Made by a program: the position numbers and the translations under genes | Notes under the pieces: model-generated | What the model saw: the letters and a program-made list of their open reading frames with translations, nothing else | Databases searched by the model: none | Told to the model about the DNA's origin: nothing | Shown: one piece after another, positions 2,109 to 24,266 of the stretch | Layout: each line of letters begins with the position of its first letter | How positions within the stretch are numbered: position 1 is the first letter of the stretch | Source: Patescibacteria group bacterium | Lineage (GTDB): Bacteria; Patescibacteriota; Patescibacteriia; Magasanikbacterales; GWA2-37-8 | Assembly: GCA_038064745.1 (NCBI GenBank) | Contig: JBBTSL010000045.1 | Coordinates: 1,291-27,722, forward strand | Length of the DNA: 26,432 nucleotides | Reading direction: 5' to 3'

Positions 2109-3242
2109 ATGGATCCAATTAAAACAATTGAAAATGAACTACGGAATTTGATTCACGATGTATTGTCGGATAAGTTTGGCGTTTCTTGGACTGATAATAT
2201 AGACGTTGGACTGACCAAAGAATGGACGGGGCGTGGGAATTTAGAAGAAAAGGCGAAAAGGGATAGATCGATTAGAGGAGACGTGGCTATCTACGACATG
2301 CCATTGGCGTACTCAGAATTCTCGCATCTAAAGATTATTCTTGAAAACCGCAAGAGTCTGTTCGAAGAAGTTTTCAAGGAATGGGAAAAGACGATGCAGT
2401 ATCTCTCTGTAGCGGAAAACTTTCGCAACGCGCTAGCACACAATAGAGACATTACCCCGACTCAACAGCAACTGCTGATTGGTATTGCTGGCGAGATTAT
2501 GGATGACATATATCTTTGGCGTATAGGAACCAGCACAGCGATAAAAGAAACCGTGATTGAATTCAGAGACTACATTCCCACCGAGAACAAGATGGAAAGC
2601 GAAGTTTTAGAAGCATCCAGAGTTTTTGTTGTTGATTTGAACAATCTGATCGTTGATGCCTTGAAAAAGAGCGGCTTTGACGATAAAAAGATAGTTGAGA
2701 AAAGAGAAGAATTCGTTTCTCAGATCACTGCACCGCAGATTTCGGTAGATACGCACACGTCACCTAAGGGTCAACCAAATTCTCAGCAAAACGGAATTAA
2801 GTGCAAAAGTTTCATCACCAGCATTCGCTATAAGCCAGCGTGCAAAGTGGATTTAAATTCGATCCTAACTTGCTTCGGTAGGCAATACTTTTCAATTCAG
2901 TTTGTACTTAACAAACCCATAAATGTCGATTCGTTGGTTCACTGGTCTGTAGAAAAAGCAGGTCTAAATCCTGGTAGCACCGTAAAAAGTGGAGACGCTT
3001 TCGATAACGTAGATTACAAACTTTTGAACGGAAAGTTGAGAATTAACGTTTCAAGATCGGGTAGCATTTGCCTTACCTGCGAAGATCCAGAAAGTTTTTG
3101 GTTCCCGCACAGAATTATTTCACCAGATCATCTATTTGGTTTTGTACTTGGGAACATTACGCCTAGAGCCATGATGCATCTCCATCAACGGTCATTTCTT
3201 TCTCTTGGCACGATTGGTGATAGTTCCTCCAGTGATCGTTAG
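2109..3242 (+). CDS. Swt1-like HEPN domain protein (putative RNase) with an unknown C-terminal domain
   Basis: IENELRNLI...LAYSEFSHLKIIL...LFEEVF pattern and the R-x4-H motif RNALAH (R106/H111). Confidence 0.75.
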   Translation: MDPIKTIENELRNLIHDVLSDKFGVSWTDNIDVGLTKEWTGRGNLEEKAKRDRSIRGDVAIYDMPLAYSEFSHLKIILENRKSLFEEVFKEWEKTMQYLSVAENFRNALAHNRDITPTQQQLLIGIAGEIMDDIYLWRIGTSTAIKETVIEFRDYIPTENKMESEVLEASRVFVVDLNNLIVDALKKSGFDDKKIVEKREEFVSQITAPQISVDTHTSPKGQPNSQQNGIKCKSFITSIRYKPACKVDLNSILTCFGRQYFSIQFVLNKPINVDSLVHWSVEKAGLNPGSTVKSGDAFDNVDYKLLNGKLRINVSRSGSICLTCEDPESFWFPHRIISPDHLFGFVLGNITPRAMMHLHQRSFLSLGTIGDSSSSDR

Positions 3243-4523
3243 CTCAGTTCGAACGTGTCCCAGTAAATCTCGTTTCTCTTCTTTTGTCCCTTCTTTAAGG
3301 ATGTATTTTGCACACGCGTACACGTCAATGTCTGGCATGATTTCGGCAACTTTTGCGGTTGCAATGTGACCACCGAGACTCGAGATCATCTTGGTTAGCC
3401 GATCTATTTCCTCTTTGATCCGCGCGACAGCGGCGAGTTCATCGATGTCGACGCTCTCAATGATTTTACAGAGCTGGCTCAATAGCTCTTCTTCTCGAAT
3501 GTACGGCTCTTTACAGCCGGTTACCCAGCGTTTCATGCATCCGTAGTAAACGTATCGCTTTATCGTGCCGTCCTTCAAACGCTTCTTCTTTTCTTCGGCA
3601 CTGATTCCTGAATTACAGTTTCCACATTTAAACATTCGAGTGAATCCGAATTCGTGTGTTCCTGGCGGTACCCGTGTTCCTGTTACTTTCATGACTTCCT
3701 GAACCCGCTCAAACACATCTTTTGTTATTAACGGCTCATGTTTTCCCTGATACCACTGACCGCTCTTCTGCGGAAATTCGTATCGACCCGTGTAGAAAGG
3801 GTTATCCATCATGCGATAGATCATACTTAGCGAAACATTTTTTCCTTTGCGCGTGGTGAAGTTTTTTTCTTTCATATAGTTCTGGATATTGCGTCCTGTC
3901 CATCCTTCGTATGCAACCTTATGGAAGATCTCTTTGACCATCGGTCCACGCTCGGGATCCATGAAAATTCGACGAGCACCCTTTTCTGCATATTTGTCAT
4001 GAAGATATCCGAGAGGTGACATATTCGGTCTGTATCCCATCTCCACCTTGGCTCGGAAGCCACGTTTTACGTTCACGCCTTTGTTGTCGTTCTCCAGCTT
4101 CGCCTGACCACACATCATCATGAGCATGAACTTATCGCTCGGAGAGTTTGTAAACTTCGGTCCATGTGTTCGGATCTCCTGAAGTAAACCCTGATCCATC
4201 AAGTCGACAACCGTACCAAGGTCACCCGCGTTACGACTTATACGATCTGCCGCCCACGTCAGGATTCCATCAAATTTCTTTTCCCTAATGTCCCCAATTA
4301 GACGATTAAACTCCGGGCGTGACCCGGAGTTTTTTGCGGAATGACTTTCGCGACGAACTTCTGCAACGTTTAATCCGTCCCTCACGGCTAGTTCCATGAC
4401 CTCTTTTACCTGGCTCTCAATCGACAAGGCTTGTCGTTCGTCATCCTCCGACGACTTTCTCGCGTAAAGGCAGTAGCGGATTGGTATAGCCTGCGTTTCG
4501 CTGTTCGTATTTTGTCCGTACAT
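3192..4523 (-). CDS. large serine recombinase 1 (short form)
   Basis: YCLYARKSS catalytic motif, DRISRN, recombinase domain (NPFYTG...GKHEPLIT) and Zn ribbon (CGNC...YYGC...C); 443 aa. Confidence 0.93.
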   Translation of the reverse strand: MYGQNTNSETQAIPIRYCLYARKSSEDDERQALSIESQVKEVMELAVRDGLNVAEVRRESHSAKNSGSRPEFNRLIGDIREKKFDGILTWAADRISRNAGDLGTVVDLMDQGLLQEIRTHGPKFTNSPSDKFMLMMMCGQAKLENDNKGVNVKRGFRAKVEMGYRPNMSPLGYLHDKYAEKGARRIFMDPERGPMVKEIFHKVAYEGWTGRNIQNYMKEKNFTTRKGKNVSLSMIYRMMDNPFYTGRYEFPQKSGQWYQGKHEPLITKDVFERVQEVMKVTGTRVPPGTHEFGFTRMFKCGNCNSGISAEEKKKRLKDGTIKRYVYYGCMKRWVTGCKEPYIREEELLSQLCKIIESVDIDELAAVARIKEEIDRLTKMISSLGGHIATAKVAEIMPDIDVYACAKYILKEGTKEEKRDLLGHVRTELTITGGTITNRAKRKK

Positions 4524-4729
4524 AGATTTGGTTACTCCTTATACCCACACACTACCGCGTCTGTCCCAGGTGCCTAGTCACGACCTGTAGGCAAGCTGTA
4601 GGTAACTAATTGATTAAAAAATGCCAATATTTGCTAGTATTAGGTCAGATTTTTCTACTTTTCCCGTCATGAACAAATATGTTGCTCCTGTGGTCATTTT
4701 CTGATAAAATTCGAGGGAATATTTTTCCT

Positions 4730-7700
4730 ATGGCAACTTCTCGAATCATCGATAATCATCGACAGTCACTTCTTGCTGCATTTCAAGAGCTTGCCTCTAA
4801 ACACGAAGAAATCTCGATCGCTACAGGTTACTGGGATCTTCCAGGAACAACTCTTGTTTTGCCTCAATTAAAGGACTGTAAAAAAATCCGTCTGCTTATT
4901 GGTCGCGAACCCCTCATTCCCCGATACCAATTAACAAAACCCGAAGTTGATTTTCCCGATAAGGATTTTTTCTCAGACTTGGAACGCCTTGAACACAATG
5001 AAACTTTTAGAGAGTCCGTCGTTAAAATCAAAGATTTAATCGCAAAAGGCGTACTTGAGGTTAGGGTTTATAAAGAAGAATTCTTCCATGCTAAATGTTA
5101 CATTTTTGGAAACTACGAATCCCCTGAAGCGGTGGGCATTATCGGCTCATCTAACTTCACGAAGAACGGCTTGACCGCCAATACTGAACTCAACGCGCTT
5201 GAGGCTGATCATCGCATCGTTACCTACACTCCACGCGTCGAAGATCAGGAGGTCGGTCACCTCGCATGGTTTGACCAATTTTGGAATAAGTCTCTTCCGT
5301 GGGATCAATCGTTTACCGCGATTATTTCCCAATCCTCACATGGCGACCTGCTCTTTACGCCATATGAGATGTACATCAAAACTTTGTACGAAATTTATAA
5401 AGAGGAGTTGGAAGACGAAGATTTGAAGGAGACCACTCGTGGAACATTTACCCTGCACGATTTTCAAATGAAAAACGTTCACGGTCTCATGCGTCGGTTA
5501 CGGAAGCATAAGGTTGCGATGCTAGCTGACTCGGTAGGATTAGGAAAAACTATCACGGCGATTGAGGTCATTAAGCAGTATAAAGAATCCGGCTTGCGTG
5601 TTGAGATTATTTGTCCAAAATCTCTTACCGTGCAATGGGAGAAACAAATGGCGACGCAAAGGATGGATGGCTCTACGCCTATCACGTTGCAAAATCCTCG
5701 CGAGATCGAGCGCAGACGGGGTCTTGATTCAATTGCTGCCGTTGGATTATTCGTGATTGATGAATCGCATAACCTTAAAAGTCGTTCCGGAAAACGCTTC
5801 AAGCAAATCACTGAGTGGATTGGCGCGAATCCAAAAGCTCATGTCTTGCTTTTGACTGCTACGCCAATTAACAACCAGCTCTCCGATATCACCAACCAAA
5901 TCCTGCTTGCGTGCCGAGGAGAAGCAGGTCTTCTACGCTTTGCCGTGCCAGATAAAAAGAACAAACAGACTACGATTGTTGATTTTAACCAAGCGGTAGA
6001 AAACCTCGCGCGTTCAATCAAACGAGATGCCGAGGAAGGAAAGTCCATTGACTTTGGATATGTTCGGGCAACCATGTCACCGATCCTTCGCGAGTTTGTT
6101 GTCCGTCGAACACGCCAAGGGATTGAGAAGGAATACGGCGGGCTTGTAGATGATCAGGGTATTCTTCAAACCTTTCCTAAGGTTGTTCCAGATGTTCGTG
6201 CGTATCGCTTCAATGAAGATGTTGCGAAAAGAATTCGAGACATTACCACCGATTCAGTCGATTTAGATTCACTGTATTCTTTGACGATCAGCGATATTGT
6301 TGATGCTACTCAGCGGCTCACACATCCGATCGATCAGATAAGTAACGCGCAATCCTCAGGTGAGACAGCGGATGTTACTTCTCCGATCGCCTTAATTTAT
6401 CGCACGATCCTTCTGCTCGGTTTCTTACCCTACCGTTGGCAGATGTATCGAACAAAATTTTACGGAAAGACCCGCGAAGAAATTAAGGAAATGAAGCTTT
6501 CGAGCGATGAACGAAACAGTTTGTTCTCTCAGCTTAGTATCTACGGCATTCTCCGTACGATGTTCCTGAAACGTCTCGAATCTTCGGTCAGCGCAATTCA
6601 TTCATCGCTGGAGACTTACGATCATAAGCTCGACATCTTTGAGCGTGGGTTACGCCAAGGGAAAATTATTACGTTAACGAACATTGATGAAATCGACGAA
6701 ATTCTTGGTGACGTTGAGGATAAAGATGCAGAGGAAGTTGAAGTGCCCGAGGAATTCATTCACGACACAATCGATGAAAATAATTATGTAGTCGATGCGC
6801 TCAAAGCCGACGTTGCAAAGGAACGTGAGTTGATTGATTTGCTTCGTCAGCAATTAGTCGTCCTTCACGAAGACGACTCAAAACTCAAGACTTTTGTTGG
6901 TCTTATTGAGGATCTTGCAAAGCGTCAACCAGCTGGTAAAAAAGTCCTTATTTTCTCCTATTACGCTGACACGATTAATTATCTGCGTGAAGTGGTTGAA
7001 ACGCGTACGAATGTCGTAAATAAAGATAACGCTGCATTTTTATCTTCAAATAATCGAGAGGATGCAGAATCGCTTGCGGGTCGATTCTCTCCTGTCTCCA
7101 AACAACACGCACTGAAAGATGGAGAAAAAGAATTATCCTATCTTTTTTCGACCGATATCTTGTCAGAAGGACAGAATCTTCAAGACTGCGGCATTCTTGT
7201 GAACTATGACCTTCACTGGAATCCGGTTCGTATGATCCAGAGAAACGGTCGAGTGAATCGTCTTGGAACATCATTCAAGGATGTCTACATCTATAACATT
7301 TCTCCAGAGGGACAATTGGACGAATATCTGCGTTTGGTCGCACGCCTTGAACGAAAGATCGATCTCATTCGTAACACTATCGGTACGGACACTCCAGTAC
7401 TCGATGAAAAAGCGAATCCGATAGAGTTCGTTGATTCTTGGAAGGACGTTTACAGTAGTGATGTCGAGGCGCGCATGGAAGCGATTCAAAATGCTGAGGG
7501 CGAAGCTGATTTCTTGCTCGCCGAAGATGAGTTTGTTTCAGACTTGAAGAGATTCCATCACGATCCAAATCACACACCAGAACAGAAGGCGGAAATATAC
7601 AATATTCCAAAAAGGAAATGGGGGGTGATGCCGACCGCGACATCTCGCGGTGATGAACGTCCCGATGTCCTCTCACTCGTTTCTCTTCAAAGCTCATCTG

Positions 7701-8200
7701 AAGTTACCCTTGGCTATGCTTTTGTAGCCATGAATAGAGATGGACGCGAAATGCACCACGTGCCTCAACTACAAGCTCTTGAATGGCTTCGTTCAACAAT
7801 TCAACGGAGCAATGAACGTCAAGCTGATCACATCAGTGCTGATCGGGTTAATCTCTTAGCTCGCGCGAAGGAAGCCGCAGAGGCTTACCATGATGACGAA
7901 GTGGTCATCGCTCCTGTTGGACAACAAGGAGACGTTCTTCGGATCATGTACGAACTTCATTTTTCGCAAGACGATCTTGATGTTGTACGAATGGCATTTG
8001 GTACGAAGAATGTCCTTGCTCGTGAAGATATGAAAAAGTGTGTGCGTCGTATCGTAAAAACAAAGAATGAAAATGGCTCGGTCCTACAAGACGTTCAAAC
8101 GATTCTTGATATCGCCCGATCACTTCAGCGTAATATTGACCGTATTGAGCGACCCAACGGAGCGGAACCACTTCTGATGTATGCCAGAACAAACGAATAA
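4730..8200 (+). CDS. PLD-nuclease/SNF2-family helicase fusion
   Basis: FHAKCYIF...IIGSSNFTKNGL (PLD HxK motif); LADSVGLGKT (motif I), IDESHN (II), LLTATPINN (III), SEGQNLQ...NYDLHWNPVRMIQRNGRVNR (V/VI). ATG 4730 preferred over 4679. Confidence 0.92.
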   Translation: MATSRIIDNHRQSLLAAFQELASKHEEISIATGYWDLPGTTLVLPQLKDCKKIRLLIGREPLIPRYQLTKPEVDFPDKDFFSDLERLEHNETFRESVVKIKDLIAKGVLEVRVYKEEFFHAKCYIFGNYESPEAVGIIGSSNFTKNGLTANTELNALEADHRIVTYTPRVEDQEVGHLAWFDQFWNKSLPWDQSFTAIISQSSHGDLLFTPYEMYIKTLYEIYKEELEDEDLKETTRGTFTLHDFQMKNVHGLMRRLRKHKVAMLADSVGLGKTITAIEVIKQYKESGLRVEIICPKSLTVQWEKQMATQRMDGSTPITLQNPREIERRRGLDSIAAVGLFVIDESHNLKSRSGKRFKQITEWIGANPKAHVLLLTATPINNQLSDITNQILLACRGEAGLLRFAVPDKKNKQTTIVDFNQAVENLARSIKRDAEEGKSIDFGYVRATMSPILREFVVRRTRQGIEKEYGGLVDDQGILQTFPKVVPDVRAYRFNEDVAKRIRDITTDSVDLDSLYSLTISDIVDATQRLTHPIDQISNAQSSGETADVTSPIALIYRTILLLGFLPYRWQMYRTKFYGKTREEIKEMKLSSDERNSLFSQLSIYGILRTMFLKRLESSVSAIHSSLETYDHKLDIFERGLRQGKIITLTNIDEIDEILGDVEDKDAEEVEVPEEFIHDTIDENNYVVDALKADVAKERELIDLLRQQLVVLHEDDSKLKTFVGLIEDLAKRQPAGKKVLIFSYYADTINYLREVVETRTNVVNKDNAAFLSSNNREDAESLAGRFSPVSKQHALKDGEKELSYLFSTDILSEGQNLQDCGILVNYDLHWNPVRMIQRNGRVNRLGTSFKDVYIYNISPEGQLDEYLRLVARLERKIDLIRNTIGTDTPVLDEKANPIEFVDSWKDVYSSDVEARMEAIQNAEGEADFLLAEDEFVSDLKRFHHDPNHTPEQKAEIYNIPKRKWGVMPTATSRGDERPDVLSLVSLQSSSEVTLGYAFVAMNRDGREMHHVPQLQALEWLRSTIQRSNERQADHISADRVNLLARAKEAAEAYHDDEVVIAPVGQQGDVLRIMYELHFSQDDLDVVRMAFGTKNVLAREDMKKCVRRIVKTKNENGSVLQDVQTILDIARSLQRNIDRIERPNGAEPLLMYARTNE

Positions 8201-11200
8201 CCCCAATCAACTACTTCGGAAGATTGATGATGCTCTGCGTTCGCTTGCGGAACATCATTCCTTCCAGGAAACACAGGCGGTGATAAATGCTGTCATCGCT
8301 CTTCTTGGTGTTACGAGCGAATCTGACGGCTGGAGATTGTTCAGTGATTCCGCGGGAAAAATTCGCTCAAACGGACACTGGTTCATGCCAGCTGATGGTT
8401 ATGCTGACCGACGAGCAGTTTACGAGGTGGCTAAGGGAAATAATTGGAAGCTCGACTTTAAGGCATACTGGGTACAAAATACGAATAAGTCCGTCATTCA
8501 TTGGGTGACGGCGATCACGCCCAATTTCGAGGACGCTCCCTGGTTAGCGTCAGAAAATGTCGGCATTGATTTCGTTATTCCAGAAAAGGCTGATCGAGTT
8601 TTCGTTGTTTTAAGCAAGGAGCACGCTTTGCGTGTTATTGAGTTGCGTGATCACCTCTCTCCGACTGCTTCTGAGATTTTTTCAAAATGGACTCAGTCCT
8701 TTGATTTTTCCAACAAGGCACAGCTCCACCAAATACTTTGGGATAGCTTTAATTTTGAGGCAATTAATAAAGTCTTTTACAAGACAATTAGCTCATTCTT
8801 TACTGAGCTTAAGCAGCATCTCCTTTCAAAATCAAAAGACCTGTTTGACGATCATTCGGCGGCTTTATTTGTAAACCGTCTTATTGGTCGCATCATTTTC
8901 TGTTGGTTCATTGATAAAAAAGGAATTTTAAATACAGAAGTTAATTACTTTCAAACAAATGGCTTAACCGCGTCTGAACATTATCGCACAAAACTCGAAA
9001 CACTATTTTTTAGAATTCTTAACACGCCAGTTGACGAACGTGTCAGTGGACTGGATATAAAAACTCCATTTCTCAACGGAGGTTTATTTGAAGCAAAGAC
9101 TGGTGACCACGAAGGAGATCCTCGCGTTTCATTTCCGGCAGATTATTTTGACCGGCTTTACGAATTTCTTCGCCGCTATAACTTTACTACCGACGAATCC
9201 TCGAGTACGTTCCAGCAAGTAGCAATCGACCCTGAGATGCTCGGTCGTATTTTTGAAAACCTGCTTGCCGAGCAAATTGAAGAAACCGGCGAACAGGCTC
9301 GCAAGGCGAAGGGTGCATTCTACACCCCACGGGAGATCGTTGATTACATGTGTAAGGAGAGTCTACGAGAATATCTCCGATCTAGGGTTCCTGAAACGAC
9401 GGATCGTGACGAACAGCTCGCGAAGTTACTTGATAAAAAACCGCATGAGTTCCGGGATCAGCAACGGAATTATCGGGGAGACCTTAAACCGTATAAACAC
9501 GACATTCTCGAAGCCCTAGAAGAGCTTACGGTGCTCGACCCAGCTTGTGGATCAGGTGCTTTTCCAATGGGCATGCTCCAGCTTCTCCTGGAAACATACG
9601 ATCGCTTGGAGAGCGATTACGATCCCTACAAGAAAAAGTTAACGATCATCAAGAACAACATCTTTGGTGTTGATATTGAGCCAATGGCGGTAGAGATTGC
9701 CCGCCTCCGTGCTTGGCTTTCTATTATTGTTGACGAAGACGTCACCGATGGCCGAATTGAGCCTTTACCAAACCTTGATTTCAAATTTGTTTGTGCCAAC
9801 ACGCTGATTCCGTTAGATCACTCCGAAGGTCTGTATGACACATTGAATGTCGACCAATTAATTGAGATTCGAGATGAATATTTTCGAGCGAGAAAATATA
9901 CTCGAAAACAAGAATTAAGAGAAAAGTTTAGTCTTTTAATAAAAGGAAGAGGGATGAATGGGATGTTCGCATCCGAGAGAGAAAAACAGCTTAAGACATA
10001 TCAGCCATTCAACGCGGAAAATTCAGCACTATTTTTCGACTCGCGAGTAATGTTTGGAATGGTGGATGGTTTCAATATCGTGATTGGTAACCCGCCGTAT
10101 ATTAGTCATGATAAATTCCAATTGCCAGAAGAAGTGTTGAATGGATACCGTTCATACCAACCATTCGCCGATTTGTACTGTTACTTTTTTGAACTTGCCA
10201 TTCTTCTAACCCAAAAAAAACACGGCGTTGTTTCATTCATAACATCCAATTCCTACATCAAAGCCGAATACGGAAAGGGTTTGCGTAAACTATTATCGGA
10301 GACAAGCACTTTGATAAACTTGATCAATATTGATCAGTCTCAGGTTTTTGAGTCCGCAACTGTCAATACAGCTATCCTGATTAGTAAAAGCCAGTTGACT
10401 GATGCAGACGTGACTATATTCAATGCACCTTACGATAATAAAGATACCGACTTTAGGAAATACATTCAGACAAATTCGTTTTCAAAAAAGAGTAGCTACT
10501 TTACAGAAAGCCCATGGCTGCTAATTGGGGGCAAGACTGCAGATTTGATCGATAAAATCCGAATGAGTGGCAAGACTCTTGAGAAATTAAAGACAAAAAT
10601 TAGATTGGGTCTAGCCACTGGAGCAAACGAAGCTTTTGTATTAAGCGAGGAAGTAAAACAAAGGCTCATCGAGCAAGATCCTCGTAATGCTGAGGTTATT
10701 AAACCGGTCTTGAGAGGAAGAGATATATCAAGGTTTTCTTATCGTCAAAAGTTATACATATTATTGACGAAGAATGGCATCGATGTCCCCAATGATTACC
10801 CATTTGTTTATGAATACCTCAAAAGTTTCGGGGAGGCTTTCATGAACCGTGGAGCGAAGGGACAGCATTGGACTAATCTCCGTGCATGTGCATTTTTTGA
10901 TGATTTCAAAAAAGATAAAATCGTTTGGATTGAGCTGACAACGAAAAGTAAGTTTGCAATGTGCAGAGAGGAAATCTACTTATTAAATTCCTGTTACTTC
11001 ATGCTTACGCCCGATGGATATAATTCATCCGCACTATTAGGAGTACTTAATTCCAAGTTGATTCAGTTCTACATGGACGTGGTTTCCCAAACCAGTGGAA
11101 TGGGAACCAATCGATGGATAAACGTAGTCGTGAAAGATTTTCCGGTTCCGGATCTTTCTAATACTAAAGAGGTAATAGATCTCGCACAGTTAGTTGACGA

Positions 11201-11333: not shown

Positions 11334-11359
11334 TTAATACGAAATAATATTCTTCTGAT

Positions 11360-12826: not shown

Positions 12827-12862
12827 CTAGCGATTTCCGGATGGATCAATGGCAGTAATTAT

Positions 12863-14359: not shown

Positions 14360-14388
14360 TTCACTTTGGGTGGTTTGTAAGCTATACT
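14360..14388 (+). promoter_or_regulatory. putative sigma70 promoter
   Basis: TTCACT (14360-65), 17-nt spacer, TATACT (14383-88); predicted start near 14394-95 coincides with the first base of the long RNA stem. Confidence 0.45.
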
Positions 14389-14393
14389 TTCTC

Positions 14394-14532: not shown

Positions 14533-14570
14533 AGCAACATCGCGGGGTTCTAATCCCTAACCACCCGCGT

Positions 14571-15104: not shown

Positions 15105-15126
15105 TCGATGAACAGCATCGCATCAT

Positions 15127-15666
15127 ATGCCAATCCTCGACTCAGTACCCATTCCAGAACGTAACATGCTTTTTCGACGGTGGTCTGGCGTGCCAATCAA
15201 TCACACGTTCGGAAATAAAGGTTTGATTGATATCGACGGCAAACCGATGTTCGCCGAGCTGGCTATCGCGGAAACCATGAAACGAGACGGCTATGAAACG
15301 CGATGGGTTGAGGTGTACGGACGAGGAAATAAAGAACCGATTTATCTCACGCAGTGGAAAGATGCGCCATACAAAGATCAGATAAACATGCCAATTCAGG
15401 AACGATGGATTACGGATACTTTGGCTGGTATTGCGAGGCTGAATAACAACTCATACAAAGGTTGTTGGGATGTTCTTGCGTGGAAGGACGGCAAACTATT
15501 ATTCGTCGAGTCGAAACGCAAAAAGCGCGATTCTGTGCGAGGATCACAGATCGCTTGGCTCGAGGCAGGTTTAAAATACGGGCTCACTCCTGACAACTTT
15601 CTAATCCTACAGTGGGACTTCGAGGACGCTCGACCCCGGCTATCACTTTCTCAATCTCACACTTGA
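15127..15666 (+). CDS. VRR-NUC domain nuclease
   Basis: GCWDVLAWKDGKLLFVESKRKKRDSVRGSQIAWL matches the VRR-NUC PD-(D/E)xK pattern. Confidence 0.8.
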   Translation: MPILDSVPIPERNMLFRRWSGVPINHTFGNKGLIDIDGKPMFAELAIAETMKRDGYETRWVEVYGRGNKEPIYLTQWKDAPYKDQINMPIQERWITDTLAGIARLNNNSYKGCWDVLAWKDGKLLFVESKRKKRDSVRGSQIAWLEAGLKYGLTPDNFLILQWDFEDARPRLSLSQSHT

Positions 15667-17094
15667 TCTGTTGAAGACCTTTTCAAACCCGTAGGTGACC
15701 GCAACCACGAAGGCATCCATCAGATCATCGTGCTTTTCGAATCCGAACCCAACAATCTGGGTGATAAGTTCCTTTGCACCTGTATTTGGGAAGAGAATAT
15801 TCCCATCACGGATTCTTGGAGAGATCAAGTTCAGTCGCGTACGCTTATCAACGTTTCCGACGCTGAATCCGTCAGCCTTGCATCCTGTCTTTTGGAGTGC
15901 TTCAATCAGGACTCGTTGATACGTAACGTCTTCCACCGCAATAATGACGTAATATTGCTCGTTGTATTCGTTATACAGATGTACGAGTGTGTCGATTTGT
16001 TCTGTGAATCCCATCCGTTTATTGATGATTGGATTCGTGACAAGGACCTGAGGTTTTTCACGATTACCCATAACAATTACCGGAACCATTGCCGTGTAGT
16101 CCGCCGTTTCCTTGTCTGATACCGCGAGGTCAACGCCAATAATCATGGCTGGTCTGTCCGATCTCGGAGCCACGTACAGTAATTCGTCCGGATATCGCTG
16201 TATCCAATCCAACTGAACGACTCGCTCAAGGTCGGAGACAATCTTGAGTAGATATTCCATCGACCACGCGACTTCATCAACGATCTTTTTTCTGAGTTCT
16301 TCGATGTCCTCCTGTGTTTTGTATTTTCCAGGCCATAACGGTTTTCCTTCCTTATCGAGGAGAGGATATTCCACCACTTTTCCTGTTCGTTCATTTTTCT
16401 CAATCTCTTCCTTGATCCGACTGATGAGCGAATCTTCGTGGAGCAAGTTTCCAACGACTACGATGTTCGTCTTTGTGTCGCCAACTGGAATGAGATCGCG
16501 GGTAAACCACTGGTAGGTTTTTTGACGTGACTCGCGCGTCTTTACCGATGCCAAATCTTCGATGTCGTCGCAGATAATGAGATCGGGACGATTCGCTCCG
16601 TGGCGCAATCCGCGTACGCTTTGGTCAAGTGATATGGCAGTTATCCTCGCGCCGAACTTCGGTATAACGAGTGATCCCGAATTCCACTCCTCATCGTGTT
16701 CAGTGAATGGTCCGAGATCGTCACGGAGCAAGGCATTATTTTCCATTTCACGCCGAATGTTTTGTAGATGGAACCGCGCCTGTGCTTGTGTTTGGCAAAC
16801 GATCAGCACGAACTTCTTTTGCTGTATTCCGAGGATCGACCACAGGGCGAGCGACATCGTGCAAATCGTGGACTTTGCTGAGCCACGGAACGCCAAAACG
16901 ACGAGCATTGCGTAATCCTGCTCGGTCAGGCTCAGGAGTTCTTTCTGGAATGGCGCGGTCTCGCAAGTGATGTATTCCGAGAAGTAGACGTGGAAGAAGT
17001 AGAAATGACTTTTTGCCGTCAGCCCCGTTCGGAATCTTCTGTCCGTTCGCACCCGCCCCATGATGTTATTCAGACTCTCCGTTTCCGTTTTCAT
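15643..17094 (-). CDS. terL: phage terminase large subunit
   Basis: Walker A AFRGSAKST, Walker B IICDDIED, nuclease acidic residues IGVDLA, AVED, HDDLMDA. ATG 17094 preferred; 17121 possible. Confidence 0.9.
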   Translation of the reverse strand: MKTETESLNNIMGRVRTDRRFRTGLTAKSHFYFFHVYFSEYITCETAPFQKELLSLTEQDYAMLVVLAFRGSAKSTICTMSLALWSILGIQQKKFVLIVCQTQAQARFHLQNIRREMENNALLRDDLGPFTEHDEEWNSGSLVIPKFGARITAISLDQSVRGLRHGANRPDLIICDDIEDLASVKTRESRQKTYQWFTRDLIPVGDTKTNIVVVGNLLHEDSLISRIKEEIEKNERTGKVVEYPLLDKEGKPLWPGKYKTQEDIEELRKKIVDEVAWSMEYLLKIVSDLERVVQLDWIQRYPDELLYVAPRSDRPAMIIGVDLAVSDKETADYTAMVPVIVMGNREKPQVLVTNPIINKRMGFTEQIDTLVHLYNEYNEQYYVIIAVEDVTYQRVLIEALQKTGCKADGFSVGNVDKRTRLNLISPRIRDGNILFPNTGAKELITQIVGFGFEKHDDLMDAFVVAVTYGFEKVFNRSSVRLRK

Positions 17095-17515
17095 AGGGAG
17101 CAATCTCACTTGAAATAACATTTCCGAGGGTCAGCGCACGACCAATCGCTTCTTCCTCTTCCTGCGTAAGCGGACGATCAACGCGAACGCTGGCGTTCAG
17201 GTCAACGCGCGTTCCGTAGGCGCGGTGGCGGTGCTTGAGCCAAAATGTAATCGCGCCGAGGTTGCCGTTTCGAATCATGCTGATCATGTGACTTTCCGCC
17301 ATGTCGCTCACGAGCGAATTGCCCTCGATGATCGCCTGTTGTGACTGCACATGGAAATCATCGTCGTCTTTGAGCCAGCGATAATATGTTGCGCGACCGA
17401 TACCGACCTTTTCGCATGCGACCTGCACAATAGGCGTACGTTTCAATTGTTCAACCATCTCGCCCTTCTTGTCGTCCTGGCGTTCGACGACCTTACTTGG
17501 TACTTGTTTTTTCAT
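17066..17515 (-). CDS. HTH protein, probable terminase small subunit
   Basis: IVQVACEKVGIGRATYYRW HTH followed by helices ending AITFWLKHR; overlaps the 5' end of terL. ATG 17515 (TTG 17527 possible). Confidence 0.75.
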   Translation of the reverse strand: MKKQVPSKVVERQDDKKGEMVEQLKRTPIVQVACEKVGIGRATYYRWLKDDDDFHVQSQQAIIEGNSLVSDMAESHMISMIRNGNLGAITFWLKHRHRAYGTRVDLNASVRVDRPLTQEEEEAIGRALTLGNVISSEIAPYENGNGESE

Positions 17516-18299
17516 ATGCGTTTTCAATCAGTTTTGCTTTGATTCCTGTTTTGTCCTCGAACCGTTTGATAATCGTTGCAATGTATTCGGGTTCGATCTC
17601 GATCCCAAAACACCGTCGTCGCGTATCTTCGCAAGCTATGAGCGTTGATCCGCTTCCAAGGAAGCCGTCATATACAACATCATGGATACTTGAACTATTC
17701 ATAATGAGTCGTCGCAAAAGTCCCGTCGGTTTGACCGTAGGGTGCATCTTGGAACTCGAGGGCTTCGGATAGATCAGGATCGTCTTGTCTTTGGATTTCA
17801 TGAACTTGTGCGTGCCATACCATCCGTATGCAATTAGCTCGTGCTGAGGGAGGTAGTCCATGCGACCAATGACCGCGTGCGACTTCGCCCAAATAAGAAG
17901 CTGGGTAAACTTGAACCCCGCATCGAGGATGCCTTCGCGCATGGCAAAGATCATCTTGTCCGAGTTGAAGATGTAGTACGCGTTCTTCGGTGTAAGATGA
18001 TGTTTAATCGGCTCAAGCCAATCCTTCGTAAACTTCCGATACTCTTCGTCGGACTGCGCGTGGTCGTTCAGAATAATCTTTTCTTTGCCTAGCTTCTGCT
18101 TGAACCCAGCCTTACTTTCCACATACGCGCACCCGTATGGGGGATCATTTACAAGTAGGCTGGCACGATCTTTTCCGAAGAGCTTATCTACGAGTTTTGT
18201 GTCTCGTGAATCCCCGTAGGCAAGCTTATGGTTTCCAAGGACAAAAATGTCCCCGAGGTTAATTGATGCGCTTTGCTTTTTGGTTGGTGAGTTTTTCAT
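17493..18299 (-). CDS. N4-C/N6-A DNA methyltransferase (beta class)
   Basis: NDPPYG precedes HPTVKP and YDGFLGSGST (motif order IV then I). Confidence 0.92.
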   Translation of the reverse strand: MKNSPTKKQSASINLGDIFVLGNHKLAYGDSRDTKLVDKLFGKDRASLLVNDPPYGCAYVESKAGFKQKLGKEKIILNDHAQSDEEYRKFTKDWLEPIKHHLTPKNAYYIFNSDKMIFAMREGILDAGFKFTQLLIWAKSHAVIGRMDYLPQHELIAYGWYGTHKFMKSKDKTILIYPKPSSSKMHPTVKPTGLLRRLIMNSSSIHDVVYDGFLGSGSTLIACEDTRRRCFGIEIEPEYIATIIKRFEDKTGIKAKLIENAYEKTSTK

Positions 18300-19542
18300 A
18301 TCGTTGTATAATTACGTCACAGAAGACTGGATCTTTTTCAATTGTGAATGATTTGCGTTTCATCTGCTCGCACGCCGCCATGGTGCTACCCGATCCTCCG
18401 AAGAGGTCGAGGACGATGTCTCCGGGCTTCGTACAGCGTCTGAGCGGCTTCTCGTGAAGCGATACGGGTTTTTCGGTTGGATGCGTATAGTCTTGGCCGT
18501 TGAGTCGTTTGGCGAGCCAGATATCGAACAGATCCACAATGTCATCGATCGTACGGTTACCTGGCTGAATATCGCGGTTGAGAATCTCGGTAAGGTTCAT
18601 CACCTTGTCGCAGAGATACGGCGAACCGATGACCCCATACACGCAAGGCTCATACGCCTTGTTGAACGCGATCTGAGGTGTCATGTTGAAATTGTTCTTC
18701 ACCCATAGGCACACGCGCTTATTTTTTATTCCAGTTTCCTCGTAAAGGGATTGCAGAAGTCCGATGGAAAGTTGGTCTACCCACATAAAGAAGTGGGCAT
18801 CCGGTTTAGCCACCGCCTTCGCGTTTTCAATGCACGTTTTCAGGAACACGCGGTATTCCACTGGCGACTTATTGTCATCGACCTTGCCGCCATACTTACC
18901 TTTGGTCGAAATACCCTTGGAGTAGTCGAGCGAAATGTTGTAGGGAAAATCCGAGTAACACATGTCTACCTTGTGTTTGCCCATGATATGAGACACGGCT
19001 TTTGGGTCTGTGGAATCACCGCACAATAAAATGTGATCACCGAGCTGGAACATCTCCCCGAGTTTTGTCTTCGGCTTCTTGATCGCTGCCGCGGCTTTCT
19101 CCGAATCGAAGTCGTCTTCTTCGACGGAGAGCGTGTCATCCCATATGTGGCTGAGATCAGTTTCATCGAACCCTACCTCGATCAGCATCTCCATGTTGAA
19201 TTCCTTCAGGAGATCCCAATCCCATTCGCCAGTATTTCTGTTTAACCTGACGTTTAACTCCTTCTCTCTTTCAAGATCCGGAATGTTCACGTAAACGACT
19301 GGCACCTGCGTAAAGCCAAGAGACTTGGCGACGGATAATCTGAAGTTCCCCCCGATTACTATGTTCTTCCGCTTTGGCGCGGAGTTCACAATCAGGGGGT
19401 CAAGCATGCCAAATCGCTTGATACTGTCCTTGAGCTTTTCCTCCGCGATCACATCGTGTTTTCTCGGATTGAAGCTTGGCGTGGTAAGTGCATCTATTGC
19501 GACGTACTCCACTTTGATTGAACCTTTGGATATTTCTGACAT
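18259..19542 (-). CDS. ParB-like N-terminal domain fused to N4/N6 DNA methyltransferase
   Basis: NPRK...FGMLDPLIVN...IGGNFR...LNRNTGEWD (ParB-N); SDFPYN, HPTEKP, LDLFGGSGST (MTase). Confidence 0.92.
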   Translation of the reverse strand: MSEISKGSIKVEYVAIDALTTPSFNPRKHDVIAEEKLKDSIKRFGMLDPLIVNSAPKRKNIVIGGNFRLSVAKSLGFTQVPVVYVNIPDLEREKELNVRLNRNTGEWDWDLLKEFNMEMLIEVGFDETDLSHIWDDTLSVEEDDFDSEKAAAAIKKPKTKLGEMFQLGDHILLCGDSTDPKAVSHIMGKHKVDMCYSDFPYNISLDYSKGISTKGKYGGKVDDNKSPVEYRVFLKTCIENAKAVAKPDAHFFMWVDQLSIGLLQSLYEETGIKNKRVCLWVKNNFNMTPQIAFNKAYEPCVYGVIGSPYLCDKVMNLTEILNRDIQPGNRTIDDIVDLFDIWLAKRLNGQDYTHPTEKPVSLHEKPLRRCTKPGDIVLDLFGGSGSTMAACEQMKRKSFTIEKDPVFCDVIIQRYEKLTNQKAKRIN

Positions 19543-19844: not shown

Positions 19845-20063
19845 TTACTTGCCGAAACCGCGAATTGTGCCGAGCAAGTCTTCGACAGACGCATTCACGT
19901 CGTCAACGACCTTATCGACCGATTGTTCTTTCTTGAGTGCGATACTTTTCCCGCACCCAGGACAAACCAGTGACTTTTCCTCCCTCACGTCATTGAGAGA
20001 GAAAGAGATTGGTGCCTCGCATCCCGGGCATGCTGTTTTAATTTGCTCTTGCCCGATATCCAT
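19845..20063 (-). CDS. small Zn-ribbon protein (CPGC...CPGC)
   Basis: 72 aa, two CxxC pairs, C-terminal amphipathic helix; near-consensus promoter directly upstream. Confidence 0.75.
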   Translation of the reverse strand: MDIGQEQIKTACPGCEAPISFSLNDVREEKSLVCPGCGKSIALKKEQSVDKVVDDVNASVEDLLGTIRGFGK

Positions 20064-20119: not shown

Positions 20120-20142
20120 GTCCGTCAAGTTTTGCACTTGAC
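20115..20142. promoter_or_regulatory. candidate repressor operator (GTCAAGT half-sites)
   Basis: GTCAAGT at 20115-21 and 20124-30; inverted ACTTGAC at 20136-42, forming a perfect IR with a 5-nt spacer; overlaps both -35 boxes. Confidence 0.55.
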
Positions 20143-20165
20143 TATTATGTACTATCCTGTACTAT
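20138..20165 (+). promoter_or_regulatory. rightward promoter for the repressor operon
   Basis: TTGACT (20138-43), 16-nt spacer, TACTAT (20160-65); ATG follows at 20177. Confidence 0.55.
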
Positions 20166-20176
20166 TATTTTCAAAT

Positions 20177-20827
20177 ATGCATGAAATCCAACAAAAAATC
20201 TTGGAGCTGGCAAAGAAATATGACCTTGGAAGCTTAAGTTTGCGGAAGATCGGCGAGCTTATTGGTCAACCCCATCCACAGCAGGTGAAGCATCACTTCG
20301 AGAAGCTTGTTTCGGCAGGTCTTCTGAAGGCAAGCTTTGACCGAAAGATCGTTAAAAAAGTTGATGTGACTAGGAAAACAGCGGATGGACTTCTGTTGAT
20401 CCCTATTTTTGGCAGTGCAAACGCTGGTCCAGCGACTATTTTTGCAGATGAAACCCTTCAGGGGTACCTGCATGTATCAAAGTCCCTTCTTCCCAAGACT
20501 CGCGGCAAAGTATTCGCGGTGCGCGTGAGCGGAAACTCAATGAATGACGCATCGCTTAACGGCAAAACGATCGACGACGGCGACTTCGCGATTGTCGATT
20601 CTGGTCAGACCGACCCGCCAAGCGGCAAGTACGTGCTGTCAGTCATTGGTGACGTTGCGAACATCAAACGTCTGGTTAAGGACGAGGAAAACGAGCAGAT
20701 TATCCTCGCCTCGGACTCGAAGGAAAAATCGTACTCGCCGATTTACATTCACGAGGACGAAAAAGAGACGTTCCGAATCAGTGGTGTGGTTGTGGAGGTG
20801 ATGAAAGATCCAAAATTAAAAAAGTAA
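20177..20827 (+). CDS. LexA/CI-like repressor (wHTH plus S24 peptidase)
   Basis: N-terminal wHTH, Ala-Gly cleavage site (FGSANAG), catalytic Ser (VSGNSM) and Lys (NIKRL). ATG 20177 preferred over 20132. Confidence 0.9.
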   Translation: MHEIQQKILELAKKYDLGSLSLRKIGELIGQPHPQQVKHHFEKLVSAGLLKASFDRKIVKKVDVTRKTADGLLLIPIFGSANAGPATIFADETLQGYLHVSKSLLPKTRGKVFAVRVSGNSMNDASLNGKTIDDGDFAIVDSGQTDPPSGKYVLSVIGDVANIKRLVKDEENEQIILASDSKEKSYSPIYIHEDEKETFRISGVVVEVMKDPKLKK

Positions 20828-20834
20828 AGTTCAT

Positions 20835-21896
20835 ATGGCTTACGAAATTGACTATCTCCCAGTGGGAGAAGGTGAAAGGGGCGGAGATGCGATCGCATTG
20901 CGTTTTGGAAACCTTGCGGGTTCGCGTGAAGAGCAGACCGTAATTGTGATTGATGGTGGGACTAAGGACTCTGGCACCGCCTTGGTTGAACACATCAAGC
21001 TCTATTACGGAGGAACAGACTTTGTTGACTTTGTAATCTCTACACATCCAGATGCAGATCATGCCTCAGGGCTGTGCGTAGTTTTGGAGCAGATGCGAGT
21101 CGGAACGCTTGTAATGCACAAGCCTTGGGAACATGCCGAAGATATCAAGAGTCTTTTTGTTAACGGCAGAATTACCGCTTCTGGTCTTGAAGATAAACTG
21201 GAAAAGTCGCTTCAGCACGCAAGCGATCTCGAATCGCTCGCCAAGGGGAAAAACATCACGGTAGTTGAACCGTTTCAAGGCGTTGCCGGAATGGACGGAG
21301 CGATTCATGTGCTGGGTCCATCAATGGAATACTATCAATCCTTGCTGCCGCATTTTCGTGGTACACCACAACCAAAAGATGCATTGGGTATTCTTGGAGC
21401 GATAAGAAAAGCAGCGGAAGATATCGTGAATAGTATCCGTGATAGCCTTGACATTGACCTGTTGAACAACGACGAAGATACGACTTCCGCCGAAAATAAT
21501 ACGAGTACTGTGATTCTCTTTAACCTGGACGGTCACAAGATGCTATTTACAGGAGATGCAGGAAAAACCGCCCTTCATAACGCATCCGATTATGCTGAGA
21601 CATCGGGAATCGCGTTAACCGACCTGCATTTTCTTGACGTTCCTCATCATGGAAGCAAGAGAAATCTTAGCAGCAGCCTCCTAAAGAGGATCAAAGCGCA
21701 GGTCGCTTACGTTTCTGTTCCAAAAGAATCAACTAAGCATCCTGCAAAGAAAGTCACCAACGCGCTTAAAAAAATCGGCGCGTCAGTCTATACGACAAAG
21801 GGAAAAACTATTCGATACAGTAGTGCCGATGCTCCGGCGCGGGCAGGATGGAGCGCAATTCAGGAAGAACCGTTCCACGAATACGTCGAGGAATAG
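20835..21896 (+). CDS. ComEC/Rec2-like metallo-beta-lactamase-fold hydrolase
   Basis: GGDAI, VIDGG, STHPDADHASG, LFTGDAG, DVPHHGS; no membrane domain. Confidence 0.88.
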   Translation: MAYEIDYLPVGEGERGGDAIALRFGNLAGSREEQTVIVIDGGTKDSGTALVEHIKLYYGGTDFVDFVISTHPDADHASGLCVVLEQMRVGTLVMHKPWEHAEDIKSLFVNGRITASGLEDKLEKSLQHASDLESLAKGKNITVVEPFQGVAGMDGAIHVLGPSMEYYQSLLPHFRGTPQPKDALGILGAIRKAAEDIVNSIRDSLDIDLLNNDEDTTSAENNTSTVILFNLDGHKMLFTGDAGKTALHNASDYAETSGIALTDLHFLDVPHHGSKRNLSSSLLKRIKAQVAYVSVPKESTKHPAKKVTNALKKIGASVYTTKGKTIRYSSADAPARAGWSAIQEEPFHEYVEE

Positions 21897-21898
21897 AT

Positions 21899-22591
21899 AT
21901 GAAACCAGATGCATATACACTCGTCGCGCGAATATTTCCAGGCATCCTCGGTGTCATTCCGTTTCTTGTCCTATATTTTCGCGCTTTGCGACCATTAATC
22001 GGAGATCTTGTTGATAGTATCTTCGGACTTCAATTCGTTTCTGACGTAACGATCCCCCTCGTTCTTCTGTACCTATTCGTGCAGTTGGCAAAGTACTTAT
22101 CAAAGGAGCTGTACCAGAAGAAAATGTTTAACAACGGTCTGAACATGCCGACGACAAATTTCTTGTTGCATCTCAACGACTTTTTTACAAGGGATTTCAC
22201 GAAAAAAGTACATGAAAAAATCTTGTCGGACTTCAACATTCAAATTCCAAGTATTGAAGCCGAACAATCTGACTCCGTTCATTCCCGAAAGACTATTAGC
22301 GAGGCGGTATCCTGCATCTGCGGAAAAATGAAAAAAGGGCATCTCATCGGTCAGCACAATACAGAATATGGTTTCTGGAGGAATCTCGCCGGAGGATCAA
22401 TTATTTCGGTGATTGCATCGGTAGTGAGCGTTATCGTTTTTGCGTGGCTCTACCCTGATGGGTCAGCTTTGCGTACGTCGATCGCTCTTGGAATCATATA
22501 CTCTATCCATCTGATTTTCGCCAAAAAAATGATAGTTCATTCTGGAGAAGAGTACGCAAAAATACTCATCCGCGAATATGTTGTGAGCTAG
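21899..22591 (+). CDS. 4-TM membrane protein of unknown function
   Basis: Two pairs of hydrophobic helices flanking a soluble domain ending HNTEYGFWRNL; starts 2 nt after the MBL stop. Confidence 0.8.
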   Translation: MKPDAYTLVARIFPGILGVIPFLVLYFRALRPLIGDLVDSIFGLQFVSDVTIPLVLLYLFVQLAKYLSKELYQKKMFNNGLNMPTTNFLLHLNDFFTRDFTKKVHEKILSDFNIQIPSIEAEQSDSVHSRKTISEAVSCICGKMKKGHLIGQHNTEYGFWRNLAGGSIISVIASVVSVIVFAWLYPDGSALRTSIALGIIYSIHLIFAKKMIVHSGEEYAKILIREYVVS

Positions 22592-22612: not shown

Positions 22613-22939
22613 ATGCCAACAAAACAATCAACCGTAGACTACATTCTTGATCAGTTAGCTGATCTTCCTGGCATCGAAGCCAAGAAAATGTTTGGCGAGT
22701 ACGCCTTGTACACGTCCGGTAAAGTTGTTGGGCTGATCTGCGACGATACGCTCTTCATTAAGATTACGGATGCTGGAAAGCAGTTTGTTGGCGATGACTA
22801 CAAGGAGGGTTCTGCGTACCCAGGGGCAAAGGCATCAATGGAAATACACGGAGACTTGTTGGAAAACCGCGAATGGCTTTCGAAACTTGTCGCCATCACT
22901 GAAAAAAATCTACCCACGCCAAAACCAAAGAAGAAATAG
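22613..22939 (+). CDS. TfoX/Sxy N-terminal domain protein
   Basis: VDYILDQL...AKKMFGEYALY..GKVVGLICDDTLFIK. Confidence 0.85.
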   Translation: MPTKQSTVDYILDQLADLPGIEAKKMFGEYALYTSGKVVGLICDDTLFIKITDAGKQFVGDDYKEGSAYPGAKASMEIHGDLLENREWLSKLVAITEKNLPTPKPKKK

Positions 22940-22946
22940 AATCGGT

Positions 22947-24266
22947 ATGCAAGAAAAAATGCAAAAGCCAATTGCATACTGTCTTTACGCGCGTAAAAGC
23001 AGCGAGTCGGAGGAGCGTCAATCTCTTTCCATTGATTCCCAAATCAAAGAAATGCAGAAGCTCGCCGAGCGCGAAGGCTTAAACATCAAGGAGATAAAAC
23101 GTGAGAGTCGTTCCGCAAAGTCGCGGGGAGACAGACCGATTTTCAACGAGCTGATCAACGACGTTCGTTTTGGTAAATTTGGTGGTATTCTCACATGGGC
23201 AACTGACCGCCTCAGTCGTAATGCTGGAGATTTAGGCGCACTGGTCGATCTGATGGATGCGGGAAAACTTATTGATATTCGCACGTTCAACCAGCGTTTC
23301 ACGAATTCGCCCAACGAGAAGTTTTTGCTCATGATTCTTGGCAGTCAGGCGAAACTAGAGAACGACAACCGAAGCGTAAACGTAAAGCGCGGTATTCGTT
23401 CTCGCGTCCAAGCTGGATTATGGCCTGGTCCTGCGCCTATTGGCTATCTCAACCAAAACCGTACGGATAAAAGATGCGAAGTGATCGTCGATATCGAGCG
23501 AGCGCCTACCATCAAACAAATGTTTGAGAAGGTGGCTAATAATCGCATGAGTACGAGGAATATTTACCAGTGGTTGAAGGACATCGGATTTCGTTCACAT
23601 CACGGAAAAGTTTTCGCCCACAGTAGCGTACAAAGAACGCTGAATAATCCATTTTACTACGGGCGGTTCGAGCATCCTAAGAAAAGCGGTAAGTGGCATA
23701 CGGGCAAACACGAGCCGATCATCACCAAGGCGTTGTTTCAAAAAGTTCAGGATCGACTTCATCGTATTCAGACCAAGCGAAGCGTGAAGGAGTTTTCTTT
23801 TGTCCGTCTTTTTACCTGTGGTCTTTGCGGATCTGGCATCGTTGCTGAGGACAAGGTGAAGAAGCTAAGTGACGGAACGATAGCTCATTACATTTATTAC
23901 GGGTGCAGTCGTGGTCGGGATCGATTCTGCAAGAATAGCTATATTCGCGAGGAGGAGCTGATCAAGGAGCTGGTTGGAATCATCGACACGGCAGAAATTG
24001 ATGAACTTGGCATTCGTTATAAATTCGACGAAGAGGTCACGCGGTACGGCAAGTTTTTAAATCACGTTCTAGGCAAACCCACAGATCTCAAAGCGGAAGA
24101 GATCGAGCTAAATATTCGGGCATACGCCAAGTACGTCTTAATGGACGGTTCCAAAACCGAAAAGCGCGAACTCCTCGGACATTTGCGGAGCCGCCTCGTT
24201 TATACGCACAAGAAGTTTCGTCTTTTACCTTCCGAGCAACAGGAAGAGGAATCAGTCGTCCAGTAA
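22947..24266 (+). CDS. large serine recombinase 2 (short form, paralogue of recombinase 1)
   Basis: YCLYARKSS, DRLSRN, NPFYYG...GKHEPIIT, CGLC...YYGC...C. ATG 22947 (or 22959); the 22770 start overlaps tfoX. Confidence 0.93.
   Translation: MQEKMQKPIAYCLYARKSSESEERQSLSIDSQIKEMQKLAEREGLNIKEIKRESRSAKSRGDRPIFNELINDVRFGKFGGILTWATDRLSRNAGDLGALVDLMDAGKLIDIRTFNQRFTNSPNEKFLLMILGSQAKLENDNRSVNVKRGIRSRVQAGLWPGPAPIGYLNQNRTDKRCEVIVDIERAPTIKQMFEKVANNRMSTRNIYQWLKDIGFRSHHGKVFAHSSVQRTLNNPFYYGRFEHPKKSGKWHTGKHEPIITKALFQKVQDRLHRIQTKRSVKEFSFVRLFTCGLCGSGIVAEDKVKKLSDGTIAHYIYYGCSRGRDRFCKNSYIREEELIKELVGIIDTAEIDELGIRYKFDEEVTRYGKFLNHVLGKPTDLKAEEIELNIRAYAKYVLMDGSKTEKRELLGHLRSRLVYTHKKFRLLPSEQQEEESVVQ

Follow-up and report, generated by a model that had tools for sequence, protein, structure and literature searches.

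The closest described relatives of the enzymes treated here are the large serine integrases of phages (A118/LI, TP901-1, Bxb1, phiC31 and SPbeta SprA). The same series of catalytic, recombinase and zinc-ribbon/coiled-coil domains was found in two large serine recombinases (LSRs), designated A and B, which are encoded on a 26,432-nucleotide stretch of a Patescibacteria genome (GenBank assembly GCA_038064745.1, contig JBBTSL010000045.1, positions 1,291 to 27,722; hereafter "the window"). As in the phages, the integrase gene adjoins the attachment site. The phage systems employ one integrase together with a small directionality factor, whereas here a second full LSR stands at the other end of a genomic island. 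The target here is the 3' end of a tRNA gene, and at about 440 amino acids (aa) the enzymes fall at the short end of the class.

Paralogous LSRs also occur together in the staphylococcal cassette chromosome mec (SCCmec), where ccrA and ccrB are adjacent, co-transcribed and of differing lengths, and where both are needed. The island shares with SCCmec the presence of two paralogous LSRs on one chromosomal cassette ferrying accessory genes, but not the layout of adjacent genes: A and B lie on opposite strands 18.4 kb apart (30 kb in the sister island described below). Phage-inducible chromosomal islands (PICIs), among them the Staphylococcus aureus pathogenicity islands (SaPIs) and the capsid-forming PICIs, are likewise site-specific islands with a repressor switch, packaging genes without a full virion module, and anti-phage cargo. 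The present island differs from these in having serine rather than tyrosine integrases, two of them, a host in the candidate phyla radiation (CPR)/Patescibacteria, and both TerS and TerL but no capsid or portal gene.

The nearest counterparts are capsid-less islands of Patescibacteria that combine terminase genes with a serine integrase; no description of this family, nor of twin LSRs placed at the ends of an element, was found in the literature. The window holds a member of the family, having the same core, tRNA targeting and cargo slots, and is set apart by the additional B-lineage recombinase at the distal end and by a cargo slot larger than is usual. On balance, and with moderate confidence, positions 153-24902 are read here as one island of this capsid-less, phage-like family, with B as an accessory recombinase at its distal end.

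Sequences and loci compared

The window corresponds to G000:C45:1291-27722, C45 being the longest contig of the 939-kb, 179-contig genome G000. Three LSRs (A, B and C) are encoded in the window, and G000 contains no others. The sister island was taken from contig C2 of assembly GCA_964414795.1 (G001:C2) and a more distant relative from JGI Ga0490051_000010 (loci L101/L102; "the JGI relative"). For the family survey, a profile of the A/B family was used to retrieve 80 genome loci, and loci from metagenomes and viral contigs (IMG/VR) were added. Trees of the short LSRs were made using FastTree (94 sequences) and IQ-TREE (54 rows, with SH-aLRT support).

Two compact recombinases

The recombinase genes of the window are as follows.

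3192-4523, minus strand: LSR A, 443 aa (Pfam), the tRNA-proximal integrase usual in the family
22947-24266, plus strand: LSR B, 439 aa, distal and outward-facing, a putative accessory recombinase of the B lineage
24856-26432, minus strand: LSR C, of the long type, with its N-terminus cut off by the contig end

The Resolvase (PF00239), Recombinase (PF07508) and Zn_ribbon_recom (PF13408) domains are present in A, B and C alike. The open reading frame (ORF) of B spans 22770-24266 on the plus strand, and its start was set at ORF Met60 (window 22947) from the family alignment. A and B are identical at 212 of 418 positions by BLASTP (51%; E 1e-153), and A and C are 34% identical. An earlier note on this DNA had counted 94 identities over 141 catalytic-domain positions by hand, and an ungapped recount gave exactly the same figure. 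Its picture of an outward-facing pair of about 440 aa each around a core of some 18 kb was likewise borne out, with A on the minus strand, B on the plus strand and the start codons 18.4 kb apart. The catalytic residues R22, S24, D93, R94 and R97 (A numbering), which are invariant in the family, are retained in both enzymes; the four zinc-ribbon cysteines are invariant across the family, and B keeps every family-invariant residue.

Both proteins had also been described as lacking the long coiled-coil and having little sequence after the zinc ribbon. The short tail stands, since 106 aa follow the last zinc-ribbon cysteine in A and 111 aa in B, against about twice as many (~210 aa) in C; the lack of a coiled-coil was overstated. 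In the AlphaFold2 model of A (pLDDT 81), the ribbon at 298-329 is followed by helices at 362-382 and 386-422, which make a hairpin (362-422), and by strands at 427-438. On this model, A and B are predicted to be compact LSRs whose zinc ribbon still encloses a coiled-coil hairpin, though a short one (~60 aa). The whole model of A matched the SPbeta SprA, Bxb1, phiC31 and A118 integrases best, and the best structural and sequence matches were to LSR entries (9dxd/9dxh, 9iu2 and 4kis). Homologues of 430-455 aa number thousands, those that are named all belong to CPR/Patescibacteria, and conservation in the short-LSR family runs through to the C-terminus; the short form is no truncated oddity.

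Between G000 and G001, dN/dS was 0.008/0.40 for A and 0.011/0.50 for B, a ratio of about 0.02 in either case and a tighter constraint than that on TerL or ParB-methyltransferase (ParB-MTase). To judge from these rates, both genes are under strong purifying selection.

A probable single island with one pair of ends

Alignment of G000 with G001:C2 gave 87-92% DNA identity from the tRNA through window position 24902, with unrelated flanks. The homology begins exactly at the 5' end of tRNA-Asn and its end coincides exactly with a degenerate copy of the 3' end of that gene; the genes flanking the G001 island are absent from G000. The features concerned are listed below.

78-152, plus strand: tRNA-Asn(GTT) gene with encoded CCA (ARAGORN), the attachment target and proximal junction (attL side)
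338-358, plus strand: GGTTCGATACCCGACC, a second scar resembling a tRNA T-arm, bordering a swapped cassette (pattern match at 344-355; alignment)
24760-24872, plus strand: distal terminal region ("F box") with clustered TGAGACA/TGTCTCA inverted and direct repeats, and with ACCCCCTC besides
24873-24902, plus strand: distal junction (attR side), a degenerate direct repeat of the 3' end of tRNA-Asn that terminates in GAGCCATG

The distal copy matches the tRNA gene at 21 of 26 positions, both copies end in GAGCCATG, and the alignment score was equalled in 1 of 400 random windows. In the JGI relative the LSR in the A position lies 100 bp from a tRNA-Gln gene, and an exact 18-nt repeat of the tRNA-Gln end is found 200 bp beyond B; across the islands the junction repeats measure 8-18 nt. 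The segment from tRNA-Asn to 24873-24902 behaves as one island.

Six TGTCTCA sites occur in the window, three of them at 24774-24810 in the F box. This region is conserved downstream of B-lineage LSRs, where the tRNA-like repeat follows it, and in solo relatives it lies 215-270 bp upstream of the integrase. A dual island on contig JAGOUY010000003.1 (JAGOUY) and the single-LSR locus L042 have the F end, the tRNA-Trp end and A (80% nucleotide identity) in common, but L042 has 2.6 kb in place of the 11.7-kb B arm of JAGOUY, and its genome encodes one LSR. Since L042 has the same termini without B, it is the A system with which the termini are associated, and the ends can do without B.

Homology between G000 and G001 is also broken at 354/355, at the T-arm-like scar GGTTCGATACCCGACC. 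The scar is the exact point of a cassette swap between the tRNA and LSR A (355-2107), with orf471 in the window and other genes in G001, which suggests cassette exchange at tRNA-like cores.

The earlier note had weighed its proposal against simple stacking, in which two unrelated elements lie back to back, each with its own integrase and pair of attachment sites. Because B-lineage enzymes are found only in terminase islands (below) and attachment scars only at the outer edges, B shows no sign of a pair of sites of its own or of independent occurrence: T-arm-like sequences were detected in the window at 129 (in the tRNA), 344 (the scar) and 24877 only. The pattern search of the window returned no such scar between A and B, and matching of the 3' ends of all 38 genome tRNAs to the window placed none near B as a second attP. 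The tRNA sites of these genomes do collect tandem elements, as exemplified by LSR C and by a long LSR in L095, and the relatives searched usually have one short LSR per genome, both as stacking would have it. Tandem insertion at one tRNA would, however, give co-oriented rather than outward-facing integrases. The surroundings of B and the interval from A to B contain neither a tRNA gene nor a scar, the same layout is met repeatedly with a B clade of its own, and the whole unit has moved between unrelated backgrounds. Stacking is thus largely refuted and is considered highly improbable.

The terminase-island family and the place of A

Across the 80 genome loci, the order ParB-MTase, methyltransferase (MTase), TerS, TerL, 0.2-7 kb of variable genes and LSR, all co-oriented, was found in about 36, and the same arrangement was seen in metagenome loci. 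Around this module and LSR these loci had no other conserved feature. A convergent tRNA gene on the opposite strand lies 0.1-4.6 kb past the LSR in 42 of the 80; the target is tRNA-Asn for the nearest relatives of A and tRNA-Ser, -Gln, -Trp or -Asp elsewhere. One locus has purE 240 bp from its left arm, so these are small islands and not prophages. The IMG/VR contigs carrying the module had no terminal repeats pointing to circles. ORFs of about 270 aa located 5' of ParB-MTase in family loci had no homology to one another and no Pfam match.

The window follows the family order on the minus strand from 19542 down to 3192, with an 11-kb cargo slot. LSR A is on the TerL strand, on the tRNA side and downstream of the module, and is the family's usual tRNA-proximal integrase. 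The conserved core (15643-19542, minus strand) was annotated using PHROGs and Pfam, and its order is the same in genome, viral and metagenome loci.

15643-17121, minus strand: TerL
17066-17527, minus strand: TerS
17493-18299, minus strand: MTase
18259-19542, minus strand: ParB-MTase

Scans of all larger ORFs with PHROGs, Pfam and NCBIfam detected no capsid, portal or tail genes. TerS and TerL without structural genes would be consistent with mobilisation in the capsids of a helper phage. Many members of the family have a tandem pair of paralogous TerL genes between TerS and the LSR, either copy being 45-52% identical to TerL of the window (L107-L111 from IMG/VR; L017, L020 and L023); the window has a single TerL.

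Recurrence and phylogeny of the B lineage

Both LSRs flank the core in five assemblies (the window, G001, JGI Ga0490051_000010, JAGOUY010000003.1 and G082:C17), and an LSR in the B position lies beside the module on three more, shorter contigs, so that the layout is present in at least eight assemblies. Its recurrence in independent assemblies rules out an assembly artefact. Seven of the B-position enzymes form an exclusive clade (FastTree 100; IQ-TREE SH-aLRT 100), which has one additional member of uninformative context. The eighth, from G082, belongs to another lineage, and the layout therefore arose at least twice. The A partners, by comparison, are spread over at least three clades of ordinary single-LSR integrases and in the dual islands target tRNA-Asn, -Gln or -Trp. 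Sister to the B clade are solo integrases of tRNA-Ser that have the F box alongside. The sole metagenome match of at least 65% identity sat in the B position, the others being in the A position or solo. In all contexts that could be read, B-lineage enzymes occupied the distal position of terminase islands only.

Two paralogous LSRs within a single element, the genes of which would flank attP in the excised circle, bring to mind an obligate heteromer of the CcrA/CcrB kind, in which A and B jointly make up the active recombinase. The strong and equal constraint on the two genes would agree with this, as would a tail-to-tail pair of LSRs, one B-type (lineage 2) and one solo-type, 47 bp apart at L068 93-2685. 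A-type enzymes nevertheless stand alone in most islands, including L042, whose A is closely related to dual-island A; the A partners are phylogenetically diverse; and A and B belong to separate transcription units 18-30 kb apart. A need of A for B is unlikely, since near relatives of the dual-island A enzymes stand alone, and the heteromer as a whole is held to be very unlikely. The short-plus-long analogy with SCCmec drawn in the earlier note does not apply: A and B are both short and lie in separate units 18 kb apart, and A types are solo in most relatives.

The arm of the island that ends in B begins at the repressor. Its ORFs, the divergent partner of the repressor and the ORF of the slot beyond B are as follows.

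19845-20063, minus strand: 72-aa zinc-ribbon ORF of a divergent switch
20132-20827, plus strand: S24 LexA/CI-like repressor of the same switch, probable start Met16 at ~20177
20835-21896, plus strand: PDC-M48B-like protein of the metallo-beta-lactamase (MBL) fold, repressor-side arm (PADLOC, Pfam)
21848-22591, plus strand: 247-aa ORF, repressor-side arm
22613-22939, plus strand: TfoX_N ORF of 108 aa, repressor-side arm, directly 5' of B
24252-24737, minus strand: cysteine-rich 161-aa ORF that occupies the slot between B and the distal end and is read towards the island interior

The pair of zinc-ribbon ORF and S24 is found in the JGI relative also. G001 and the JGI relative have the TfoX_N protein at 92-94% identity; the adjoining LSR B of the JGI relative is only 68% identical, and the cargo upstream there is unrelated. 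The 161-aa ORF is present in G001 and absent from the JGI relative, L113 and L115. The stretch from B to the F box is empty of genes or holds one ORF (as in the window) or two defence-type genes; in JAGOUY the slot between B and the end holds AAA_15 and a 414-aa gene. ORFs of 224 and 225 aa ahead of B in JAGOUY and L113 were considered as S24-like and were rejected on comparison.

This arrangement bears on a further alternative, that B and its adjacent cargo make up a nested or hitch-hiking cassette which uses the distal terminal region of terminase islands as attB. The geometry fits the family rule of LSR 3' end, variable cargo and junction, with 0-2 genes between B and the F box; the sister clade of B is that of the solo tRNA-Ser integrases beside an F box; a sibling has identical termini without the B arm; and the architecture arose at least twice. 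Set against these points, a second junction was not found, S24 and its cargo are tightly packed (gaps of 2-7 bp), and B of L113, L115 and L116 begins 60-70 bp after the preceding gene with no F box upstream. Furthermore, S24 adjoins single-LSR islands too (L048, L159 and L164), and no B cassette was seen outside islands. With no second junction detected and with B fitted closely into the arm on the repressor side, a single island is favoured over a B cassette; the cassette is regarded as an unlikely alternative.

Cargo and gene order across copies

The remaining genes of the island lie between the tRNA and TerL. The variable cargo slot between TerL and LSR A (4679-14273, mixed strands) was annotated using Pfam and PADLOC.

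679-2094, plus strand: orf471, first of two cargo ORFs between the tRNA and LSR A (679-3242)
2109-3242, plus strand: orf377, the second of these
4679-8200: PLD-SNF2 helicase, cargo slot
8181-11333: type IIG/MmeI-like restriction-modification enzyme, cargo slot
11360-12826: DUF2779/Cas4-like, cargo slot
12863-13807: PD-T7-5-like, cargo slot
13791-14273, minus strand: YbaK-like, cargo slot
14265-15666, plus strand: three small ORFs (89, 177 and 179 aa), convergent with TerL and conserved with the core

Homologues of the three small ORFs are found in L072, L075 and the JGI contig, and a Pfam search with the three gave no match. The N-terminus of orf377 resembles PDC-M34B. Another gene takes the place of orf471 in G001, and its homologues lie directly 3' of LSRs in L075 and L056. 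The proposal that orf377 and the 161-aa ORF might be halves of a single disrupted gene was rejected, as they have no mutual similarity. The PDC-M48B-like MBL-fold gene and its 247-aa partner travel as a pair in different cargo slots (window 20835-22591; L103 8975-11559; L148 from 12577 onwards).

The comparison of orientation and cargo across homologous islands that the earlier note had called for was made with G000, G001 and the JGI contig: the order of genes is kept and the cargo varies. In G001 the core from A to B measures 30 kb, with GmrSD and a 10.8-kb metal-resistance cluster added. This heavy-metal/redox cluster (L008 2601-12880; G001:C2:22601-32880) replaces the PD-T7-5-like gene and encodes a P-type ATPase, two cation-efflux proteins, DsbD, thioredoxins, a PAP2 protein and an M14 peptidase. 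The content of the cargo slot differs in the JGI relative as well, where it includes a diversity-generating retroelement (RVT_1 and bAvd), a DUF4011 helicase-nuclease, GmrSD and an HTH_17 gene (L101 14251-15727). In the same relative a CBASS system stands in place of the MBL-fold and 247-aa genes.

Inversion had been suggested in the earlier note as one role of the pair. An invertase or shufflon-like system, in which A and B would invert the 18-kb core or parts of it, could draw on the paralogous genes in inverted orientation. Across the three diverged copies (G000, G001 and the JGI contig), however, every shared block keeps its order and orientation; apart from the LSR genes, long-range inverted repeats do not rise above chance; and the enzymes are integrase-type LSRs. 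Such a system is scarcely credible here.

Recombinase C

C is the integrase of a separate neighbouring element, stacked outside the A/B island. G001 has no C at the corresponding place. The final 16 codons of C (ending LSIND) are the antisense of the terminal sequence of the island (24856-24902); as these codons lie in the island terminus, a later insertion must have altered the tail of C. This fits an older element pushed away from the tRNA by a later insertion. A second dual island has a long LSR directly against its F end (L095 4839-6577), in the same arrangement as C.

Discussion

In the proposed account, the family combines a core of ParB-MTase, MTase, TerS and TerL with a LexA/CI-type switch and exchangeable defence genes, and its members would insert at the 3' end of a tRNA gene by means of a compact LSR, here A. 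B, from a specialised lineage, appears from its sequence to be fully functional as a second recombinase; its gene ends the repressor-side arm and reads outward towards the distal terminal region and attachment junction. In an excised circle the A and B genes would converge on attP. B is probably an add-on, because siblings have the same two termini without it, and is probably no subunit required by A. It may act on the distal attachment site and terminal region under control separate from that of A, possibly for a second reaction (excision or reversal of direction) or for the recruitment of cassettes between B and the end. A stricter division of labour, in which A and B each catalyse one direction on the same junctions and so form a switch without a small directionality factor that evolved at least twice, is thought decidedly unlikely.

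Several observations weigh against a single island with B as its accessory enzyme. The terminal repeat of the window is short and degenerate, that of JAGOUY is 8 nt only and not significant on its own, and the distal ends of single-LSR loci mostly had no direct repeats of the tRNA 3' end above the reverse-strand control; the junctions are assigned to an enzyme by position only. A is separated from TerL by cargo on the opposite strand and is not co-transcribed with the core. L114, a 7.8-kb contig, encodes a B-lineage enzyme with no module or F box nearby, and as most family members are without B, B could serve a selfish nested cassette rather than the island.

The assignment to the host is uncertain too, because two unlike tRNA-Asn genes and a join at an N-gap are involved. 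An N-gap immediately precedes the window, and the contig ends within C. A second tRNA-Asn(GTT) gene of the genome (G000:C101:3647-3719) is clearly different and does not encode CCA, whereas the tRNA-Asn of the window, with encoded CCA, differs from that of G001 in a single compensated T-stem pair. This points either to a binning error for C45 or to a tRNA that moves with the island. The 1.28 kb ahead of the N-gap (L012; G000:C45:1-1290) has a GC content of 60% against 48% for the genome and terminates in the first 39 nt of the same tRNA-Asn as that of the window; it was probably joined through the tRNA in scaffolding.

Serine integrases are prized in genome engineering for being simple and one-directional; to reverse them, a cognate directionality factor is required, and such factors are hard to identify. 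Elements that keep two diverged and equally constrained integrases at their ends could reveal new ways of controlling direction or recruiting cargo, and would supply orthogonal pairs of enzyme and site. For microbiology, B enlarges the picture of a family of defence-carrying CPR islands that is very common and apparently undescribed, in a group whose mobile elements are poorly known.

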